Program-made: the position numbers and the translations under genes
The notes under the pieces: model-generated
Told to the model about the DNA's origin: nothing
The model's input: only the letters and a program-made list of their open reading frames with translations
The model's database searches: none
Source of the DNA: Spirochaetota bacterium
GTDB taxonomy: Bacteria; Spirochaetota; Spirochaetia; Sphaerochaetales; Sphaerochaetaceae
DNA length: 64,000 nt
Assembly (NCBI GenBank): GCA_023401595.1
Contig: JAEXDQ010000037.1
Location: 31,701 to 95,700 of the forward strand
Reading direction: 5' to 3'
Part shown: piece after piece, positions 6,309 through 15,609 of the stretch
Numbering within the stretch: position 1 is the first letter of the stretch
How the letters are laid out: every line of letters begins with the position of its first letter

Positions 6309-6322
6309 TTTTCAAATGAAAA
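6309..6322. promoter_or_regulatory. Palindrome TTTTCA-AA-TGAAAA upstream of HTH paralog 1 (candidate operator)
   Basis: It lies 73 nt upstream of the GTG at 6395. The equivalent TTTTCATATGAAAA sits 71 nt upstream of the GTG of the other two paralogs. Confidence 0.55.
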
Positions 6323-6394
6323 TTAATCGCCAAATATGCAGGTTTTGTTTCTATATGAAATATAGCGATGCGGCTACAGTTTATATGTATATCC

Positions 6395-6757
6395 GTGATA
6401 GAGTTTTGGCAAAGGGTGTATGCAGCGTTGGAAACAACGGGCCTCCGTATGGCGGATATCTCCAGACTCACGGACATTCCACGTTCCACGTTTTCAAACT
6501 GGATACGCTGGGGTCGTTATCCATCGGTGGACAATGCGGAAAAGATCGCCAGCGTATTGGGCGTCTCAGTGGAATGGTTGGTGAAGGGCGTCGATGTATA
6601 TGAAGACTATGACGATGACATGGATTCGCCCCTAGTGGTCAATGTCATCAATACGATACGGACGATGGATGAAAATCAGCTCAACGCATTGGAGCCGGTC
6701 CTGAGCTATATGGCCGCCCCGGAGGCAGACCGGCGATCCAGGACAAAGAAGGGATAA
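6395..6757 (+). CDS. XRE/Cro-type HTH regulator, paralog 1 (heads the Wadjet operon)
   Basis: It carries an HTH (MADISRLTDIPRSTFSNWIRWGRYPSVDNAEKIASVLGVSVEWL) and an acidic YEDYDDD linker. The GTG start is inferred from the conserved cgtgatagaNtt(t/c)tgg context shared with the paralogs at 37484 and 46001. There is no obvious SD, and an ATG at 6368 is also possible. Confidence 0.7.
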   Translation: MIEFWQRVYAALETTGLRMADISRLTDIPRSTFSNWIRWGRYPSVDNAEKIASVLGVSVEWLVKGVDVYEDYDDDMDSPLVVNVINTIRTMDENQLNALEPVLSYMAAPEADRRSRTKKG

Positions 6758-6819
6758 CCCCAGCGGGACAGACCGCGCCTTTGGAAAACCCTTGTCCTCC
6801 CCTTCTTTGCGGTTTCACC

Positions 6820-6848
6820 GTTTTTCATGGAGCACATTCATGAAAAAC
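6820..6848. promoter_or_regulatory. Split palindrome GTTTTTCATG-N9-CATGAAAAAC in the jetA promoter region
   Basis: It has perfect 10-bp inverted arms and lies 70 nt upstream of the jetA start. It uses the same TTTTCAT half-site as the HTH-gene palindromes. A third half-site lies at 6864-6871. Confidence 0.5.
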
Positions 6849-6918
6849 ATCAGGGAATCGGCGTTTTTCATCTTCCAAGACCTTTCCATAGCCTCTATAC
6901 TTTCGCAAGGAATATTTC

Positions 6919-8412
6919 ATGACAGACATTACGCAAGAGTATATCCAAACGCTTATCGACACAAACAGCGGCCTGAAGCTCCTCCATGCGCGGAACGCCA
7001 ACGTCATCATAGCCTTCCTGTACCAGGTATTCGGAAATCTCAATGAAACAAGCATGGAGCAGGATCGGCTCCTCGCATCCTTGGAAAACTATTTCAACAC
7101 GAACGACGTCGCTTCCGAGGCTCTGGAGATACCGGATCAGACGGATCTCGGGCTGGACAACAAGGTCAAGGCGAAAGCGGCGGTGAACGCCTGGTGTCAG
7201 AAGGGATACCTGCTCAGGTCCTACAATGAAAGCGTCCAGGAGATCATCACCCTCTCCGCCGGTGTCAGCAGGCTGTTCCGGTATCTGGAAGACATCGACA
7301 ACAGCACGAAAGGCATCGTCGGCGCCGACAGTCGTTTTTCCTCCATCATCCATCAGATCAACGAACTGGAGGAGAAGACAACCGAGGACCCCCTTGAACG
7401 CATTCAGTCTCTCAAGACGAAGCAACAGGCATTGCAGGATGAAATTCTCGCCATTGAATCGCAAGGGGTCGCGCCGACCTTCACCAAAGTCCAGATACAA
7501 GAGCGTATAGAAGAGCTTGAACGGCAATGCAAGGCGTTGCTGAGCGATTTCAGACAGCTCAAGGACAACAACCACAGGCTGTTCCTGCAAATATGCAAGA
7601 AACAGCTGGAGGCGACGGACAGCAGGGGCGACATCCTGCAATACACGATGGAGGGACAGTCGGCGATCTCCAGTTCCCCGCAAGGACAGAGCTTCGACGC
7701 TTTCTGGGGATATCTGACGCTGGAAGAAGAGGAAAACACGTTATACCGGCAGATCAAAGCGTTGGAGCATAAAATCGAAGACCTCGACCTGGACTGGGAT
7801 TTCACCTTCCTGAAAGGTCTGGAAGACCGGCTGTACGAAGAAGGCAGGAGCGTCAACGAAGAAAACCACATGCTCTCATCCCGCCTTCGGAGGATCCTGC
7901 TCCGTTACGCCAGCGGAGAATATCAGCAGATGCAGGAGCTGAGCCGGGAAGTCAAGGCGATGTGCGCCGCGCTCGACACCATACCGAAAGAGGCATGGAT
8001 GGAAGCCGATGGAAGACTCTCTCTCGATTCCACATTCTCCAGACCGCTCGTACTACCGCCGGTGAAGATGGAGCATTCCGTAACGAGCTATGAAGAGCAG
8101 GAAGCCACCGGAGGGGATGTCCTTGGCAAGGTGTTCGCACAACAGAGCATCTCCACCGCGACGCTCAGGGAGCATATCGATATCCTGAGGAAACAGTATC
8201 CGACCTTTACGCTCGCGACAGTCGTCGAGCGTTTTCCGTTGCAATTCGGTCTTGAGGAGCTTCTGAAATATCTGACAATGGTCATGCGGATGGACAGTGA
8301 CCAAAAAAGCGTAGACCCCTATGAAGAGGACAAAATACTCTTTCTTTCATACCCAGACGGTCGCCCCACTGTGGTGACCATACCCAAGGTGATCATCTAT
8401 GGAGAAAACTAA
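6919..8412 (+). CDS. jetA: Wadjet JetA (MksB-like kleisin, DUF3375-type)
   Basis: This 497-aa, coiled-coil-rich protein is the first gene of a 4-gene operon whose sizes and order match JetABCD. Its stop overlaps the jetB start. Confidence 0.75.
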   Translation: MTDITQEYIQTLIDTNSGLKLLHARNANVIIAFLYQVFGNLNETSMEQDRLLASLENYFNTNDVASEALEIPDQTDLGLDNKVKAKAAVNAWCQKGYLLRSYNESVQEIITLSAGVSRLFRYLEDIDNSTKGIVGADSRFSSIIHQINELEEKTTEDPLERIQSLKTKQQALQDEILAIESQGVAPTFTKVQIQERIEELERQCKALLSDFRQLKDNNHRLFLQICKKQLEATDSRGDILQYTMEGQSAISSSPQGQSFDAFWGYLTLEEEENTLYRQIKALEHKIEDLDLDWDFTFLKGLEDRLYEEGRSVNEENHMLSSRLRRILLRYASGEYQQMQELSREVKAMCAALDTIPKEAWMEADGRLSLDSTFSRPLVLPPVKMEHSVTSYEEQEATGGDVLGKVFAQQSISTATLREHIDILRKQYPTFTLATVVERFPLQFGLEELLKYLTMVMRMDSDQKSVDPYEEDKILFLSYPDGRPTVVTIPKVIIYGEN

Positions 8413-9226
8413 CAGCTGGGCGGCGGCCTGCATCCATGTCATGCAGAAACCTCTGTTCGCGGAAGACACGGAGCTGTTCGCTTCGTTGTGCAACTATCAA
8501 CAGGAAATCAGCGGCTACCTTTCCAAAATCGGATTGGAGCTCGTCCTCAACAGGGACCTTGGCTACGCATTCATTCGACAGTTCGACGCTCCCGAGGGAG
8601 AAGAGAATTCCCTGCCGAAGCTGATTCGCAGAATTCCGGTCACCTTTGAACAGTCTCTGGTACTGGTGATCCTGTACGATGAATTGGAAAAATTCGACGG
8701 CAACGGCGGCGACACCCCGTTCTGCATCGTAACGGAAGGTCAGGTCAGGGAACTGGCCCAAGCCTGTTGGCCCGGTGCGAATACCGACCAGACGAAATTC
8801 CAGGACGCCATTGCGAAGGCCTTGTCCGATCTTGCTGAGCAGGGGTTGATCCGTGAACGCAGGCCGCAGGGCATGAACGACCAGGAAAGCGAGCTTTACA
8901 AATCGAACCGTAGGTACGAACTACGCAATATCATCCGTGCGAGGGTGACGAAGGATTTCTTCATGGAGTTCAAGCGGAGGCTTGAGGAGTTCGCGAACGG
9001 AGGGAAAACATCCTCTCAAACAGAACGCAGACTCGTCGAAACAATATCCGGGGAGGCTGTTTCTCCCTTGGAGGAAGAATCGGGCGTCGAGGACATCGAT
9101 GAAACCGCCCTCGAAGCCATCCTCCCTACCGTCTATGACGATGAAACTGAGGATGAGGGCGGACCCGGAATATCAGCCGAAAGCATGGAAGATGGAAGAC
9201 AGCTGGAGGTACGTAATGCAGAATGA
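8399..9226 (+). CDS. jetB: Wadjet JetB (MksE-like, DUF4194-type)
   Basis: This 275-aa protein has an acidic C-terminal tail, holds the second position in the operon, and overlaps both neighbouring genes. Confidence 0.7.
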   Translation: MEKTNSWAAACIHVMQKPLFAEDTELFASLCNYQQEISGYLSKIGLELVLNRDLGYAFIRQFDAPEGEENSLPKLIRRIPVTFEQSLVLVILYDELEKFDGNGGDTPFCIVTEGQVRELAQACWPGANTDQTKFQDAIAKALSDLAEQGLIRERRPQGMNDQESELYKSNRRYELRNIIRARVTKDFFMEFKRRLEEFANGGKTSSQTERRLVETISGEAVSPLEEESGVEDIDETALEAILPTVYDDETEDEGGPGISAESMEDGRQLEVRNAE

Positions 9227-12200
9227 TTTCCTGTTCGACGACCTGATCGAGAAAACAGGCTACCGCCTTTCGGTCTTCGAGCTCTACAACTGGGGGACCT
9301 TCGACAACCATATCCTACACATGGAGCTTGGCGGGGAGAACTCCCTATTGACGGGGAGCAACGGTTCAGGCAAGACGACGATCGTCGACGCGATCCTGAC
9401 GCTGCTCGTCCCTACCGAATATGTCAGCTACAACATATCCTCAGGAAAGGACGGCCGGGATGGAAGGACGATGGACAGCTATGTCCGGGGGGCATGGTCA
9501 ACGCACAAAGGGGACGACCAGTTCTCGGCGAGCAAGGACTACCTGAGGGAGAAAGCCACGCACTCCATCCTGCTGGGTACGTTCATCAACGCGGGAGCCG
9601 AAAAACCGATCACGCTGCTGCAGATCCACTACTACAACCAGAGCGGCACGTTACAGCATCTCTATGCGCTTTTCGACCAGGAAGTCACCATCAGACAACT
9701 GCAGACCACCGCGGGAGTGTTCAACCCCACGAACCTGAAAGCGTTCAAGGCGGCGCTGTCGGAGTGCTTCGGGCAAGGAATCCAGTTCTTCGAGACATTC
9801 CGTAGCTACAGCAAGGTATTCGGAGAACGGGTCGGCTTCCGCTCCAGGGAAAAGGCGCTCAAGATATTCAGCAAGACCGTTGGCATGAAGGACCTGACGA
9901 ACCTCAACGAATTCATCCGCTACCATATGCTCGACGAGGTCGATTTCGAGTCTGAGTTCAAGAAGCTCAGCGAAAGCTACGACAACCTCCACAACACCCA
10001 GATCGAGATCGAAAAGGATGACGAACAGATCCGGCAATTGCGCAGAATTCTTTCTGAAGGTCAGCGCTTCGGCGAAAAAACGCTCGAATACGATACGGCG
10101 AAAAAGGATCAGGATTTCTGTGAAATATGGAAGGCGTGGCAGTCGAAAAGCTTCCTGGAATTTGAAATCGGCAATTGCCAGGCCGAACGGTCGCTAGTGG
10201 TCGGGGAGCTGACCGAAAAACAGCTGGCGCAGGAAAGCCAGGAGGCACGCAAGGACGAACTGCGAGACCAGTTGAACCAGAACGAGCAATACCGTCAGCT
10301 GGAGGCCAAGCGCAACACCCTCGGAGCCAAGCAGCTGCTGCTCCAGGAACGTCGGAGCACCAGGGAGTTCTATGCGGCGAGAGCCCGCAAAATCGACCTC
10401 CAGGTTCCGTTCGACACCGGCGGTTTCGAGGCGAATCTATTTTCACTTGCCAGCAGACAGAATGCGCTCGAAGACAAAAACGACGGTCTGCAGGAGAACA
10501 TTAATGTCTCGACGATGACCCGACAAGACCTTGAGAGCCAACTTTCCATCACTGAAGAGCAACTCCAAGCCTTGGCAGGCCGGGATTCCAACATTCCCCT
10601 GTCATATCTGCAGGAACGGAACAGGCTCTGCGAATGGCTCGGCATTGAGGAAACCGAACTGCCTTTCGCAGGAGAACTGATGCAGGTGAAGGAAGAATAC
10701 GAAGCGCAGCGGAAAAGCATCGAGCTGCTGCTCCATGATTTTGCGCTGACGCTGTTGATCCCGCACTCCCTCAGAAACAAGGTGAGCCAATACCTATGGG
10801 CAAATCAGGTAAAGGTTCCCGTCGCCTACGTCGCTATCCCGAAGGAGCAGTTTCTCCCAGCGGACGAGGAGGATGAGAGCCTCTTCTGCAATACGATAGA
10901 AATCAAGGAGGGGCATCCGTACAGCAGCTGGGTACTTTCCTATCTTCAGCAGGCGTACAGACATATCCACGCCCAGAGCCTAGATGAACTTCTCCATGCG
11001 GAATTGGCCTATAGTGAAAGGCAGCTGACCCGCGACGGAATCTACTTCAAGGCATACGCCGTTCCCCGGAAGAACTCGGACATCTATGTACTGGGCTGGG
11101 ATACGGCCCGCAAGCGGGAGCAACTGGTCGTTGACAAGGACAACCTCGTCAACGCCATGGACGAACTGGACAAGGCGATCAGGGAGGACTCCCGCGAGAT
11201 ATCCCGGAACAAGGAGAAAATCGAGGCGATCATCGAAATCCGGACGGTACGGACCTACGAGACCATCGACACCCGATCCCCGGAAGCCGAAATCGAAGAA
11301 CTCAACGCGCAGATCGCCGAACTGGAATCGGGTCTTGGCGACTACGACGCCCTGCGCAGGCAGCTGCAGCAGGTCGACGCTTCGATCCGGGAACTGAAAG
11401 CCCGATGTGAACATCTCGTTTCCGAACGCGGGCGTATCGACGGAAGGCTCAGTCAGTACGAAGCGACGTTGAAGTATCGTACTGAACTTCTGAAAGATAT
11501 CGACATCTCGACCCGGCGACAAGAATTCACGGACTTTTCCGAACGGTACGAGCTGTCCAACGTATGGAGCAACCTCGACAACCTCGATGAAGCGGCGGAA
11601 AGAATCCGCAAGTCCCTGGACGACAGGATCCAGCGGACGCTCGCCGAAATAAACGACAGCAAGGAACGATGCATCAACCTGATGTCCAGCTTCTGCAAGC
11701 CCGGCCAGGATACGTTGACGAAATATCCGAACTGGACCAGCAACCTGCTCGAGCTGGGGACGGAAAACTTCTCCATGCAGGACATCCCCTCCTTCAGAAA
11801 GGTGTACGACCACCTGCAACAGGACGATCTGCCCCGGCATAAGGAGGAATTCGCCAATTACCGAACCAGTCTGATTGGAAAGGATGTCATTTCCTTCAAC
11901 CGGACCTTGATGAACTGGCAACGGACGATCGATGAAAACATCATCGACCTCAACACCAGCCTCCAGCGAATCAACTACAGTCAGGATCCGGTAACCCAAG
12001 CGAAGACCCACATCCGCATCCGCAAGCAGCAGAACGCAGACGACATGGTCCGGAACCTCAAGGCGTTGCTCCGGGCCGCGATGCCGAACCCCACCGCAGA
12101 ATCAAACCTGACGATACAACAGAAGCTGGACGTCCAGAACAAATTCTTCAAGCAGGTCGAAGCGCTTCTCAGCTTCCTTCGGCAGGATGATGTCCGCCAG

Positions 12201-12620
12201 AAAGTGCTGGATGTGCGCCGATGGTTCATTTTCGCCGCGGAGGAGTATGACGTATCCACCGGCGACCAGCTTCGCTACTACCAGGACAGCGCCGGCATTT
12301 CCGGCGGTCAGAAGGCGAAGCTCGCCTATACGATTTTCGCCGCGGCGATCGCCAAGCAGTTCGACGTATTCAGCGACGACGGCGCCTCGCGTTCATTCCG
12401 GTTCGTCTTGATCGACGAGGCGTTCAGCAAGATCGACGATGAAAACAGCCGGTATGCGATGCAGTTGTTCAGTCAGCTCAACTTGCAGCTGATGGTGATC
12501 ACCCCGTTGGACAAGGGCAATCTGGTGCTTCCGTTCATCAAGACGGTGCATGTCACCGAATGCCCTGACGGCAAGAGGTCGCAGATCGTCAGCGTGAAGG
12601 TGGAGGATTTCGATGGTTAA
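9216..12620 (+). CDS. jetC: Wadjet JetC (MksF-like SMC-family ABC ATPase)
   Basis: The ATG at 9216 overlaps the jetB stop by 11 nt. It has an N-terminal Walker A (GSNGSGKTT), a long coiled-coil middle, and a C-terminal signature plus Walker B (GGQKAKLAYTIFAAAIA..FVLIDEAFSKID). The product is about 1134 aa. Confidence 0.85.
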   Translation: MQNDFLFDDLIEKTGYRLSVFELYNWGTFDNHILHMELGGENSLLTGSNGSGKTTIVDAILTLLVPTEYVSYNISSGKDGRDGRTMDSYVRGAWSTHKGDDQFSASKDYLREKATHSILLGTFINAGAEKPITLLQIHYYNQSGTLQHLYALFDQEVTIRQLQTTAGVFNPTNLKAFKAALSECFGQGIQFFETFRSYSKVFGERVGFRSREKALKIFSKTVGMKDLTNLNEFIRYHMLDEVDFESEFKKLSESYDNLHNTQIEIEKDDEQIRQLRRILSEGQRFGEKTLEYDTAKKDQDFCEIWKAWQSKSFLEFEIGNCQAERSLVVGELTEKQLAQESQEARKDELRDQLNQNEQYRQLEAKRNTLGAKQLLLQERRSTREFYAARARKIDLQVPFDTGGFEANLFSLASRQNALEDKNDGLQENINVSTMTRQDLESQLSITEEQLQALAGRDSNIPLSYLQERNRLCEWLGIEETELPFAGELMQVKEEYEAQRKSIELLLHDFALTLLIPHSLRNKVSQYLWANQVKVPVAYVAIPKEQFLPADEEDESLFCNTIEIKEGHPYSSWVLSYLQQAYRHIHAQSLDELLHAELAYSERQLTRDGIYFKAYAVPRKNSDIYVLGWDTARKREQLVVDKDNLVNAMDELDKAIREDSREISRNKEKIEAIIEIRTVRTYETIDTRSPEAEIEELNAQIAELESGLGDYDALRRQLQQVDASIRELKARCEHLVSERGRIDGRLSQYEATLKYRTELLKDIDISTRRQEFTDFSERYELSNVWSNLDNLDEAAERIRKSLDDRIQRTLAEINDSKERCINLMSSFCKPGQDTLTKYPNWTSNLLELGTENFSMQDIPSFRKVYDHLQQDDLPRHKEEFANYRTSLIGKDVISFNRTLMNWQRTIDENIIDLNTSLQRINYSQDPVTQAKTHIRIRKQQNADDMVRNLKALLRAAMPNPTAESNLTIQQKLDVQNKFFKQVEALLSFLRQDDVRQKVLDVRRWFIFAAEEYDVSTGDQLRYYQDSAGISGGQKAKLAYTIFAAAIAKQFDVFSDDGASRSFRFVLIDEAFSKIDDENSRYAMQLFSQLNLQLMVITPLDKGNLVLPFIKTVHVTECPDGKRSQIVSVKVEDFDG

Positions 12621-13833
12621 CGTTAGCGGGCTTCGCGAGAAAGCGACGCATAAAGCACCGCAAGCCCTTGACGCCCTGCTTGACCAGACTCCAGTATCGG
12701 CGATGAACAGCTGTACGCTTTTTCCATGGTCCGTCCCCTGCGACAAGGGAAACTACAACGACGAAGGGTGGCATGCGGAAATCGGAGCGTTGGAACAGCA
12801 TTGCAAAGCGGTTCTCGGCTATGGATACCGCCTCGTCTATGGACAAGCGCGCAATACGCGCTGGCAAGGCCAGGTACCAAATCTAGAACAGATTGTTTTC
12901 GATACCGCCGAAGACCTGTTCCGTTTCATTGCCAAATATGACGAAGCGACGTTCCTGCTGACAGTGGCGGATAATGCGGCTAAAACGCTGAGTGGCCTGA
13001 AGATCCCACTTGTCAGCCAAAAGCCCTGGGTTCAATGGCTTAAGGCGAACAAAACGGTCATCATGAACAACCGATCCGGCGACTTCTGGAAAGGCGTCCT
13101 TGACCTTGCCGCATACCTAGCGGCGAATCCCGACAGCGGCCTGTTTCCTAGGGAGTTGCCCGTCTCCGTGGACACCAAGTTCTTAGAATCCAACTGCATG
13201 CTTGTGCTGAGCCTTGTCAACTCGCTACGGTCGGATATCCCCATTCTTTCCGACAAAAGCTTGACCTGGCCCCACCGTCTCGGCCTGAGAACGAAAGAGG
13301 ACATGATACATCTCCGGCTTCCAGTCCATGCTGACTTAATGGTACAAAACACCATATGCTCACGGATGAACCACATCATCATACCCAAAGAAGCCTTCAT
13401 TTCTTTCTCGTATCCTTCTGTACGACGGGTCTTCATCATTGAAAATGAAACACTTTTCTTGACTTTCCCACTATCGGACGGAGAACTTGCAATCTATAAA
13501 GGAGGGTTCGCGATTACAGCTCTGGCTGGCGCCCAGTGGCTTTCATTTTGCGACCTCTTCTATTTTTCCGATATCGATGAACATGGTTTTGCCATGCTCG
13601 ACATAATGCGGGGAATGTATCCTGGAACAAAGAACTTCTGCATGGACGAACAGACGTACAAACACTTCTCCGAATATCGCGTACAGGGAAAAACCTTTAC
13701 AGGTGATTATGAACGGCTTACAGATTCTGAGATTGCGACACTGAAACGGATTAAGGCCGACATCGGATACGGAAGGCTTGAACAGGAACATATCGACCTC
13801 GGTTACATTGAACAGAGAAAACGGGACTTGTAG
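12613..13833 (+). CDS. jetD: Wadjet JetD (Toprim nuclease subunit, DUF3322/DUF2220-type)
   Basis: This 406-aa protein overlaps the jetC stop. It has a C-terminal Toprim-like Glu (FIIENETLF) and a DxD motif (FSDIDEHGF). Confidence 0.8.
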   Translation: MVNVSGLREKATHKAPQALDALLDQTPVSAMNSCTLFPWSVPCDKGNYNDEGWHAEIGALEQHCKAVLGYGYRLVYGQARNTRWQGQVPNLEQIVFDTAEDLFRFIAKYDEATFLLTVADNAAKTLSGLKIPLVSQKPWVQWLKANKTVIMNNRSGDFWKGVLDLAAYLAANPDSGLFPRELPVSVDTKFLESNCMLVLSLVNSLRSDIPILSDKSLTWPHRLGLRTKEDMIHLRLPVHADLMVQNTICSRMNHIIIPKEAFISFSYPSVRRVFIIENETLFLTFPLSDGELAIYKGGFAITALAGAQWLSFCDLFYFSDIDEHGFAMLDIMRGMYPGTKNFCMDEQTYKHFSEYRVQGKTFTGDYERLTDSEIATLKRIKADIGYGRLEQEHIDLGYIEQRKRDL

Positions 13834-13957
13834 GCTGCCCGCAGACTATTCCAAGTGACAATAGGATGAAATCGATCACCACTACTATCAAAATAATAAT
13901 ATAACTCTATTGATAGTTTCAAGAAACCACGATAGTCTATGTTATGAGGTACAGAAC

Positions 13958-14821
13958 ATGGATTTTTCAAGTTTTCCACAACTGAATACTTATTATGGAG
14001 GTTCCGAGAAGAAACTTGCGATTTTGATTGGAGAATCTAGTTATATGCTGAAGTTTCAGAAAAAGACCCCTTTCGGGTTCAGAAACAACCATATATCGGA
14101 ATATCTTGGTTCCCACATTTTCCAAATCCTTGAATTCAATGTGCAAGAAACGTATCTCGGAACATATCATGGACAGCAGGTCGTCGCATGCAAGAACTTC
14201 ATAGGAGCAGATGAACAGTTCGTACCATTCAACGATGTGGGGGAATCGACCCTCGACCAAGATAAAGAATTGTATCAATATTCCTATGCGGATATCATGC
14301 AGATGCTGAAAGACAACTCAAAATTGACGGATGTCAAGGAAACGATAACCTTATTTTGGGAGATGTTCATAGTTGACGCCCTCATCGGTAATTTTGATCG
14401 GCATGGTGGAAACTGGGGGTTTCTAAAAAAAGGCAATAGGTATCGGCTTGCACCCGTATTCGACAATGGTTCCTGTATGTTTCCGCAGATGGTCGATGAA
14501 CAGGAAATGCGCTCCGTCATTGATTCAAGACAAGCCACCGATGATAGGATATTCAAGTTTCCAACTTCTCAAATCAAACTGGATGGTAAAAAAAGTTCGT
14601 ATTACGAAGTTATTTCCAGCCTGGCGTTTCCTGAATGCAACCAAGCCCTGAATACGATTTGCGCACGGACGGATATCGAACGGATCATCGCATTTGTCAT
14701 GGACATGGAGGATATTACGGAACTCCATAAACAATTTTATTGCCATATGCTACGCAACCGATATGAAAAAATTCTGAAGACGGCAAACGACTCGTATCGA
14801 AAACACAAGGAGAACGTATGA
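13958..14821 (+). CDS. HipA-like Ser/Thr kinase, catalytic (C-terminal) domain only
   Basis: It has the catalytic loop DALIGNFDRHGGNWGF (compare the full HipA in this window, NYLIGNCDAHGKNFSF) and the Mg-binding LAPVFDNGSC. The N-terminal HipA subdomain is absent. The ATG at 13958 follows GAGG. Confidence 0.75.
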   Translation: MDFSSFPQLNTYYGGSEKKLAILIGESSYMLKFQKKTPFGFRNNHISEYLGSHIFQILEFNVQETYLGTYHGQQVVACKNFIGADEQFVPFNDVGESTLDQDKELYQYSYADIMQMLKDNSKLTDVKETITLFWEMFIVDALIGNFDRHGGNWGFLKKGNRYRLAPVFDNGSCMFPQMVDEQEMRSVIDSRQATDDRIFKFPTSQIKLDGKKSSYYEVISSLAFPECNQALNTICARTDIERIIAFVMDMEDITELHKQFYCHMLRNRYEKILKTANDSYRKHKENV

Positions 14822-15609
14822 AGGAACTGCGCACATCCGGTATCATCTGCGTCGATGACAACTACGGCTTTACCTATCAGGTATGCAGAATCGAGTACGT
14901 GTTGTTTGAAGACGAAACATTCAGATATATATTTACCCCGTTCTACAACATTATTGAATTCACTCCCCCAGAAATTTTTCAGGGGATTCCCGGACTCAAC
15001 CTGGATGTAAGAAAATCTGAATATGTCAGAGAAAACAGAACCCCGGTTTTTATTTCGGAACGAACACCAAGTACCAACAGGGAAGATCTCTGGGAACTTC
15101 TTGACGATGTAGGCCTGGAATACCTGAACCCATTGGAATGGTTGATACGTACCCCTTTGCAGTATTCCGGAGATAGCCTGTACGTAGTGAGAAATCCACA
15201 TGACGGCAGCAAGCAAATGATTCATTGCGACAGCATCGATGAGCTGGGAAACAGAAATCAGACAATCATACGGAAATTATTGGAAGTTATCTGCTCCAAC
15301 GCTGATTTTGTATCCAAAGAACTCACGATCAATGATCAGAACCGGAAATATCTATACGAAGTACTCATGCCCCTGTTTGTGAAAAGTGCGAAATATCAGC
15401 GCGAACGTCAAAAACTAGGCATCGGCCATGCCCGTGAAAAGTTCACAGGTAGAAAACCGATTTCAATTGACGCTCCTAAATTGGTAGAAATCATGACTGA
15501 CTATCTCAACGGGAAAATTTCAGTACAGCAGGCCTGCCTAGTCCTGCATGTAAGCGAAGCGACGTTCTATCGACGGCTTCGTGCGTTCAGGAAGAACCAG
15601 GTATCATAA
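14818..15609 (+). CDS. Partner of the HipA-like kinase: HipS/HipA-N-subdomain-like region fused to a C-terminal resolvase-type HTH
   Basis: An ATGA overlap with the kinase stop suggests translational coupling. The segment PVFISERTPSTNREDLWELLDDVGLEYLNPLEWLIRT..SGDSLYVV follows the HipA N-terminal pattern (FF..LLP..R...LL..G.D..GA). The C-terminus LVLHVSEATFYRRLRAF is HTH-like. Confidence 0.5.
   Translation: MKELRTSGIICVDDNYGFTYQVCRIEYVLFEDETFRYIFTPFYNIIEFTPPEIFQGIPGLNLDVRKSEYVRENRTPVFISERTPSTNREDLWELLDDVGLEYLNPLEWLIRTPLQYSGDSLYVVRNPHDGSKQMIHCDSIDELGNRNQTIIRKLLEVICSNADFVSKELTINDQNRKYLYEVLMPLFVKSAKYQRERQKLGIGHAREKFTGRKPISIDAPKLVEIMTDYLNGKISVQQACLVLHVSEATFYRRLRAFRKNQVS

Follow-up and report, generated by a model that had tools for sequence, protein, structure and literature searches.

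An HTH gene with a conserved upstream operator pair as the apparent first gene of a mobile Wadjet cassette in Sphaerochaeta-type genomes

The Wadjet operon in the window, by which we mean the whole 64-kb stretch of DNA that was analysed, appears to travel in a mobile HTH-jetABCD cassette whose integral first gene encodes a small HTH protein, a reading supported by synteny. Autoregulation of this gene and its paralogs through two upstream sites, O1 and O2, is well supported by their conservation. Read-through from the autoregulated HTH promoter may be the main way in which Wadjet is tied to the regulator, an explanation to which we give about an even chance, and direct control of Wadjet by the HTH protein at half-sites before jetA is possible. 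The sequences directly show the sites and how they are conserved, the synteny and the lack of a canonical operator at jetA; binding, promoters and read-through are inferred. The features are collected in Table 1.

Table 1 Positions of regulatory and coding features in the window
Feature	Position	Strand	Remarks
O1	6309..6322	.	Perfect 14-bp palindrome TTTTCAAATGAAAA; 23.6 bits, rank 3 in the genome
O2	6348..6361	.	Weaker site TTTCTATATGAAAT; 18.5 bits
Putative -10 of the HTH promoter, TATATG	6382..6387	+	7 nt before GTG
HTH paralog 1	6395..6757	+	120 aa, XRE/CI-type; HTH domain, acidic flexible linker, helical C-terminal domain
Split inverted repeat GTTTTTCATG-N9-CATGAAAAAC	6820..6848	.	Arms 6820-6829 and 6839-6848, 9-nt gap; left arm semi-conserved, right-arm CATG only in this genome
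Conserved block GTTTTTCATCTTCCAAGACC	6863..6882	+	Holds the proximal TTTTTCAT (6864-6871) and a putative -35, TTCCAA (6873-6878)
Putative -10 of the jetA-proximal promoter, TATACT	6896..6901	+	17 bp after TTCCAA; kept in 8/8 lineages including G001
jetA Shine-Dalgarno, AAGGAA	6907..6912	+	Read from sequence; rGGAA in close lineages
jetABCD	6919..13833	+	jetA 6919-8412, jetB 8399-9226, jetC 8982-12620, jetD 12613-13833
Paralog 2 module	37400..37861	+	O1 37400-37413, O2 37439-37452, CDS 37484-37861; AAA_13 / PDC-S06 ATPase gene downstream
Paralog 3 module	45917..46369	+	O1 45917-45930, O2 45956-45969, CDS 46001-46369; divergent from a DUF2589 operon

The operon is a complete Wadjet system of four co-directional genes. 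Pfam profiles identify JetA (DUF3375, 8.5e-74), JetB (DUF4194/MksE, 4.5e-29), the SMC-type ATPase JetC (AAA_29 and SbcC_Walker_B, 7.6e-22 and 4.6e-20) and JetD (DUF3322 and Toprim JetD_C, 2.3e-29); the true start of jetC is probably later than 8982. HTH-jetABCD follows an IclR gene in the genome of the window (G000), in G003 and on metagenome contigs (L068-L074 and L084). In L067, L080, L083 and G001 it lies at a second chromosomal site, downstream of a hexapeptide-transferase gene. HTH identity at the second site is 79%, 76%, 60% and, in G001, 40%. Because the unit recurs at two chromosomal sites with identity this low, we conclude that the regulator belongs to the Wadjet cassette, and the dedicated regulator-Wadjet link proposed in the preliminary description is supported by this conserved unit. 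Full-length relatives of the HTH protein were found in Sphaerochaeta-type assemblies only (13 clusters, E below 1e-33). Sixteen other Wadjet loci, drawn from 400 Spirochaetota genomes, all lack such an upstream HTH gene, one of them having an unrelated toxin-antitoxin pair. These loci rule out a general HTH-Wadjet pairing across the phylum and point to a stable, lineage-specific acquisition rather than a general feature of Wadjet.

A reading of the HTH gene as a HipB relic was also rejected: a HipA-like module follows Wadjet only in the IclR-site lineages G000, G003 and G002, in G001 the 1.1 kb after jetD contains no HipA-like match, and non-Hip modules are likewise headed by members of the HTH family. 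In the window (13910-15609), the HipA-core gene after jetD matches the candidate defence system component PDC-M03A (E = 6e-32), and there is a weak match of its partner to PDC-M03B. Some relatives carry reduced Wadjet operons. Among the same-genus IclR-site relatives, jetD is a 48-aa stub in G003 (L021 5270-5413) and has no match in G002 (L022), and in both genomes a HipA-like kinase gene directly follows jetC; the HTH gene, O1/O2 and the conserved block upstream of jetA are nevertheless retained in these copies, which lack the nuclease subunit. At L080 3460-6315 and L081 2622-5477, a 125-aa jetA fragment precedes an 856-961 aa product with DUF3375 and SbcC_Walker_B, an arrangement suggestive of a deletion within the Wadjet operon.

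Three HTH proteins of 120-125 aa are encoded in the window, all of them above the Pfam cut-off for HTH_3 plus Phage_CI_repr. Their start codons are an aligned, conserved GTG (6395, 37484 and 46001), and the distant orthologue of paralog 1 in G001 has ATG at the same codon. An AlphaFold2 model of paralog 1 (pLDDT 80) predicts a five-helix HTH domain at residues 3-64 (helices 3-15, 19-26, 30-39, 45-55 and 59-64), an acidic linker modelled with low confidence (65-78) and a helical region at the C terminus (79-117). The sequence of the recognition helix, STxSNWxR, hardly varies among the paralogs, in keeping with the half-site TTTyCAw that they have in common. Foldseek and PDB profile searches place SinR, the P22 C2 repressor, DdrO and C.Csp231I nearest to paralog 1, all with weak scores, and the remaining matches are likewise weak: PADLOC models of the RmrA N-terminus, Control_protein (E = 2e-4) and capH, and NCBIfam RstR. 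By its domains and its model, the 120-aa protein is a stand-alone XRE/CI-type regulator with a predicted helical oligomerisation domain. A fourth paralog, 49% identical to paralog 1, lies outside the window (G000 contig C5:64220-64558). Its O1, TTTTCAGATAGGAA, and its O2, CCCATATGAAAC, 39 bp further on, are both degenerate; four tandem GGCTCAATCTA repeats come before it and a convergent gene after it, leaving it without a downstream partner.

The 14-bp palindrome TTTTCANNTGAAAA that the preliminary description reported 71-73 nt before each GTG is exactly where it was said to be, at distances of 73, 71 and 71 nt for paralogs 1, 2 and 3, with three matches found against 0.01 expected from shuffles. 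Across the 3.44-Mb genome, TTTTCA-NN-TGAAAA occurs four times, three of these upstream of the window's HTH genes. A weaker second site (O2), absent from the preliminary description, accompanies each of these three palindromes (O1), its centre lying exactly 39 bp downstream of the O1 centre. The same layout is found before homologues from metagenome contigs and from a further four genomes of the genus, down to 40% protein identity; by eye, the 39-bp spacing is seen in the sequences of L023, L024, L026, L027, L028 and L067. In G001, the two sites read ATTTCATTTGAAAT and TTTCCATCTGGAAC. O1 is unchanged among the G000, G003 and G002 orthologues while its flanks diverge. When upstream regions of homologues at 40-80% identity are aligned, O1, O2 and a TATAyr box emerge as conserved islands in otherwise scrambled sequence, and the O1/O2 pair forms a conserved footprint before every close homologue examined. 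Scoring the genome with a matrix built from 23 O1/O2 sites, we found that genuine sites reach 18.5-25.3 bits and that all six sites of the window fall within the top 11 positions; O1 and O2 are confined to the promoters of the paralogs. The O1 of L080 carries a G-to-A change (TTTTCAAATAAAA).

The TATAyr box lies 6-7 nt before the HTH start codon in all eight aligned lineages, and paralog 1 has no Shine-Dalgarno sequence before its GTG. With the box 7 nt from GTG and no Shine-Dalgarno sequence, the HTH mRNA is probably leaderless, its start codon coinciding with the transcription start, which would put the centre of O2 near -40 and that of O1 near -79 from the HTH start. The HTH protein, as a dimer or tetramer, probably binds both sites in its own promoter, and the perfect O1 and weaker O2 would jointly set the level of the protein, negatively, positively or both. 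The conserved footprints (O1, O2 and TATAyr) argue strongly for the autoregulation that had been proposed. Its sign is another matter. The positions of O1 and O2 would be compatible with repression by occlusion of the -35 region and equally with activation in the manner of lambda PRM or the C proteins, and since both fit, we use the term autoregulation without assigning a sign.

We then turn to jetA. The split repeat and the additional TTTTTCAT are present as described, 48-99 nt before the ATG at 6919. The preliminary description took these half-sites to be an operator inside the jetA promoter, a claim that our scans contradict. No full operator (TTTyCA-ww-TGrAAA) occurs in the region upstream of jetA (6758-6930), and the best matrix score there, 2.6 bits against the range of genuine sites, is a background level reached about twice per kb genome-wide. 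Extending the scan over 6363-14564, which includes the jet operon, yielded no site above 9 bits. The 23-site matrix thus rules out a canonical O1/O2-type operator at jetA, in the spacer and in the operon alike. The right-arm CATG is specific to G000, the other six lineages retaining only an A-run, and G001, the most diverged cassette, has an HTH-jetA spacer of 44 nt with zero half-sites.

Conservation upstream of jetA is concentrated elsewhere. We aligned spacers of 119-161 nt from seven distinct cassette lineages, which are related, so that their conserved blocks are not fully independent observations. One block, (G/T)TTTTTCATCTTCCAAGACC, is invariant but for its first base (G or T) in all seven, and the rest of the spacer is scrambled; a search of the genome for a second copy with up to two mismatches found none. 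TATACT follows the block by 13-14 nt, and a purine-rich Shine-Dalgarno sequence and the ATG come next; in G001, TTCCCA-17-TATACT stands directly after the HTH stop codon. We regard TTCCAA-17-TATACT as a putative weak promoter of the sigma-70 type. A consensus promoter scan did not call it, its -35 matching at only 3/6 positions, and a transcription start 6-7 nt past TATACT would coincide with the edge of the Shine-Dalgarno sequence. Comparison of homologous Wadjet loci thus gave a mixed outcome for the motif: the proximal TTTTTCAT is invariant in seven lineages, but the split palindrome is not kept.

An invariant half-site that abuts a putative -35 is what would be expected if the HTH protein bound TTTTCAT half-sites and directly repressed a separate jetA promoter as the main control of Wadjet. 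The clustering of half-sites also fits such a model: the jetA spacer holds the only TTTTTCAT triple within 51 bp in the whole genome, and against dinucleotide shuffles of the spacer the TTTTCA count has P = 0.006, with 0 of 5000 reaching the TTTTCAT count. The left arm of the split repeat is kept as TTTTTCAT, TTTTTCAC or GTTTTCAC in five of the seven lineages, so that most have a second TTTTCA 30-43 bp upstream of the proximal copy, or about three or four helical turns (by eye). The split repeat can moreover be described as the O1 palindrome plus 11 bp, roughly one helical turn, and the linker of the protein is flexible. We nevertheless consider direct repression at jetA unlikely, given the background-level score, the missing CATG in six lineages, the half-site-free spacer of G001 and the lack of half-sites in the HTH/PDC-S06 spacers of the paralogous modules. 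TTTTTCAT is also a common word: being the reverse of gene starts of the form ATGAAAAA, it occurs 18 times in the window and 557 times in the genome. Genome-wide rarity, on which the proposed operator depended, accordingly holds for the full palindrome and for the TTTTCAT triple but not for the single TTTTCAT. The conserved A-run and T-run could equally produce curvature upstream of a promoter, conservation of the proximal TTTTTCAT may reflect T-tract architecture of this kind, and the half-site evidence at jetA would also be explained by T- and A-tracts together with spacers of common descent. The HTH protein may bind half-sites at jetA, as a minority reading.

Another explanation takes the inverted repeat at 6820-6848 not as a protein-binding site but as an RNA hairpin in a read-through transcript, serving as an attenuator, processing site or stabiliser. 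When the fold of the spacer is predicted, the repeat forms its main stem, and its perfect 10-bp arms exceed what half-sites would require. Yet it folds as a weak AU hairpin, the spacer fold has a z-score of only -1.3 and no U-tract follows the stem. Complementarity is missing in G002, L080 and L083 and poor in L067, and the genome contains 551 perfect 10-bp inverted repeats of which this is one. We judge an RNA role highly improbable. A minus-strand mini-ORF in the same spacer (window 6818-6871, starting at 6871; MKNADSLMFF..., MKNADSLMFFMNVLHEKR in G000) was judged unlikely. Its start is the reverse complement of the invariant TTTTTCAT, GGAAAGG lies 9 nt upstream and the first ten codons are indel-free in six lineages; it is probably spurious, with lengths ranging from 10 to more than 30 codons and changes that, assessed by hand, are mostly non-synonymous.

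The explanation that we favour is read-through. jetABCD lies directly downstream of the HTH gene, and our search for an intrinsic terminator between the HTH gene and jetA returned only a 5-bp stem at chance frequency, so the genes are probably co-transcribed. With no terminator and a spacer of just 44 nt in G001, co-transcription is the simplest coupling, and we also counted the half-site-free spacer between paralog 2 and its PDC-S06 gene toward it. The weak jetA-proximal promoter may add basal expression, and the regulator could gain a secondary hold of low affinity on this promoter through the invariant TTTTTCAT beside the -35 and one or two half-sites further upstream. Control by read-through would matter little if TATACT belonged to a real, strong, constitutive promoter. 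Wadjet is expected in the literature to be constitutive (PMC11662680), and the HTH protein might accordingly control only itself, possibly along with the promoters of other paralogs, leaving jetABCD constitutive and its half-sites a product of chance or promoter architecture. The -35/-10-like pair and Shine-Dalgarno sequence conserved right before jetA would suit this arrangement, as would the lack of a full operator there. Constitutive expression is harder to reconcile with the way the HTH gene stays beside jetABCD through relocation and at identities as low as 40%, a persistence that speaks for a functional link, with the lack of a terminator and with a half-site cluster that is statistically unusual, and we find it rather doubtful.

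Dedicated regulators beside Wadjet have precedents. The preliminary description assumed that none had been described; however, BrxR/CapW regulators, the one regulator family reported there, are reported to co-localise with Wadjet operons (PMC9122601, PMC11662680), and the assumption holds only in part. BrxR/CapW and HTH paralog 1 share a logical role, that of an autoregulated repressor heading a defence operon, but differ in fold and family: BrxR/CapW is wHTH-WYL-WCX, whereas paralog 1 has 120 aa, no WYL domain and Pfam matches only to HTH_3 and Phage_CI_repr. CapH, of the CapH+CapP pair, is a small XRE HTH protein whose C-terminal domain serves oligomerisation; its gene heads an immune operon, and the protein binds the promoter region of that operon (10.1101/2022.04.27.489752). 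Paralog 1 resembles it in domain layout, as modelled here, and in its position at the head of an immune operon. The PADLOC capH model matches weakly and not significantly (paralog 1, E = 1.5e-3; paralog 2, E = 5e-3), and no CapH chain is among PDB profile matches at E < 0.01. Unlike CapH+CapP, the HTH paralogs have no gene for a CapP-type protease (a Zn-metallopeptidase of the ImmA/IrrE type) beside them, and no induction route is apparent. Searching the whole genome with PF06114 for such a partner gave none near any paralog; the matches are C3:8681-8983, inside a 402-aa HTH-M78 fusion that holds the only clear M78 domain, and one below threshold. A tblastn search of the genome for a SinI-like antagonist, consisting of the C-terminal domain alone, returned just the four paralogs. 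With neither an adjacent protease nor such an antagonist, we propose no inducing signal.

The closest logic to HTH-Wadjet is that of restriction-modification controller proteins. C.PvuII has a leaderless transcript and is co-transcribed with the nuclease gene, and autoregulation buffers or delays the nuclease (PMC2175313). Like paralog 1, C proteins (C.PvuII, C.AhdI and C.Csp231I) are small XRE regulators with a DNA-cleaving defence partner and two palindromic upstream sites, and C.Csp231I is among the Foldseek matches. The C-boxes of controller proteins abut within ~35 bp. The HTH sites differ: their centres are 39 bp apart, 25 bp separate them, and they do not form two abutting C-boxes; paralog 1 also has an extra C-terminal domain of ~45 aa, and Wadjet has no methyltransferase needing a head start. 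SinR of Bacillus subtilis is the best Foldseek match (1b0n, E = 7e-3, TM ~0.5). It similarly joins an HTH domain to a helical multimerisation domain and offers a precedent for a half-site cluster as target, but there is no significant sequence relationship, no SinI-like partner turned up in the genome and the biology is different.

Given that dedicated regulators beside Wadjet are already known from BrxR/CapW, an XRE-headed HTH-jetABCD unit would be a modest addition to the regulation of defence operons. Wadjet is usually treated as a constitutive anti-plasmid system, and a fixed XRE regulator upstream of jetA would give this SMC-type defence a testable transcriptional control. The HTH family would then be a regulator family of its own, separate from both BrxR/CapW and CapH/CapP. 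Since other defence-like modules of the island are headed by paralogs that share the operator, cross-regulation of several systems by one operator code is testable as well. A bolder idea, quite improbable in our estimation, is an island-wide regulon in which the four SinR-like paralogs, with one operator code and one recognition helix, would co-ordinate Wadjet, the PDC-S06 ATPase and the DUF2589 conflict operon, engaging the spaced half-sites at jetA through the flexible linker so that Wadjet would be inducible. If true, a mobile Wadjet cassette could thereby have a circuit for establishment or homeostasis like that of C proteins, as opposed to the constitutive Wadjet that is generally assumed. 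For the engineering of Sphaerochaeta-type strains that resist transformation, it would be of use to know whether the HTH regulator offers a way to switch Wadjet off.

The surroundings of the other paralogs and of further operator-like sites yielded several minor observations. The AAA_13 ATPase after paralog 2 (window 37938-39806) matches the candidate defence system PDC-S06 in PADLOC at E = 5e-111. On the minus strand 5' of paralog 2 (window 37226-37272) lies a 14-codon remnant of DUF2589 type, MGVFRKIANFRKKA; an intact gene of this type is divergent from paralog 3 at 45036-45731. G003 (L023) has the intact arrangement, with the DUF2589 operon divergent from the HTH gene and PDC-S06 after it. 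The fourth perfect TTTTCA-NN-TGAAAA of the genome, GTTTTCAATTGAAAAC (22.1 bits), is outside the window on G000 contig C50 (16325-16338), in the intergenic space between divergent genes that are not HTH paralogs, and may be an extra target of the family or a chance occurrence. A near-operator of 17.4 bits, ATTTTCATATGTAAAG, at L075 259-274 (G000 C3:7439-7454) overlaps the ribosome-binding site of an ORF that precedes the 402-aa HTH-Peptidase_M78 fusion gene (L075 877-2085), in an AT-rich island with MazEF-like genes. Also outside the window, G000 contig C38:91365-92799 holds four copies of TTTCACGTGAAA within 1.5 kb, which look like the operator set of a different regulator.
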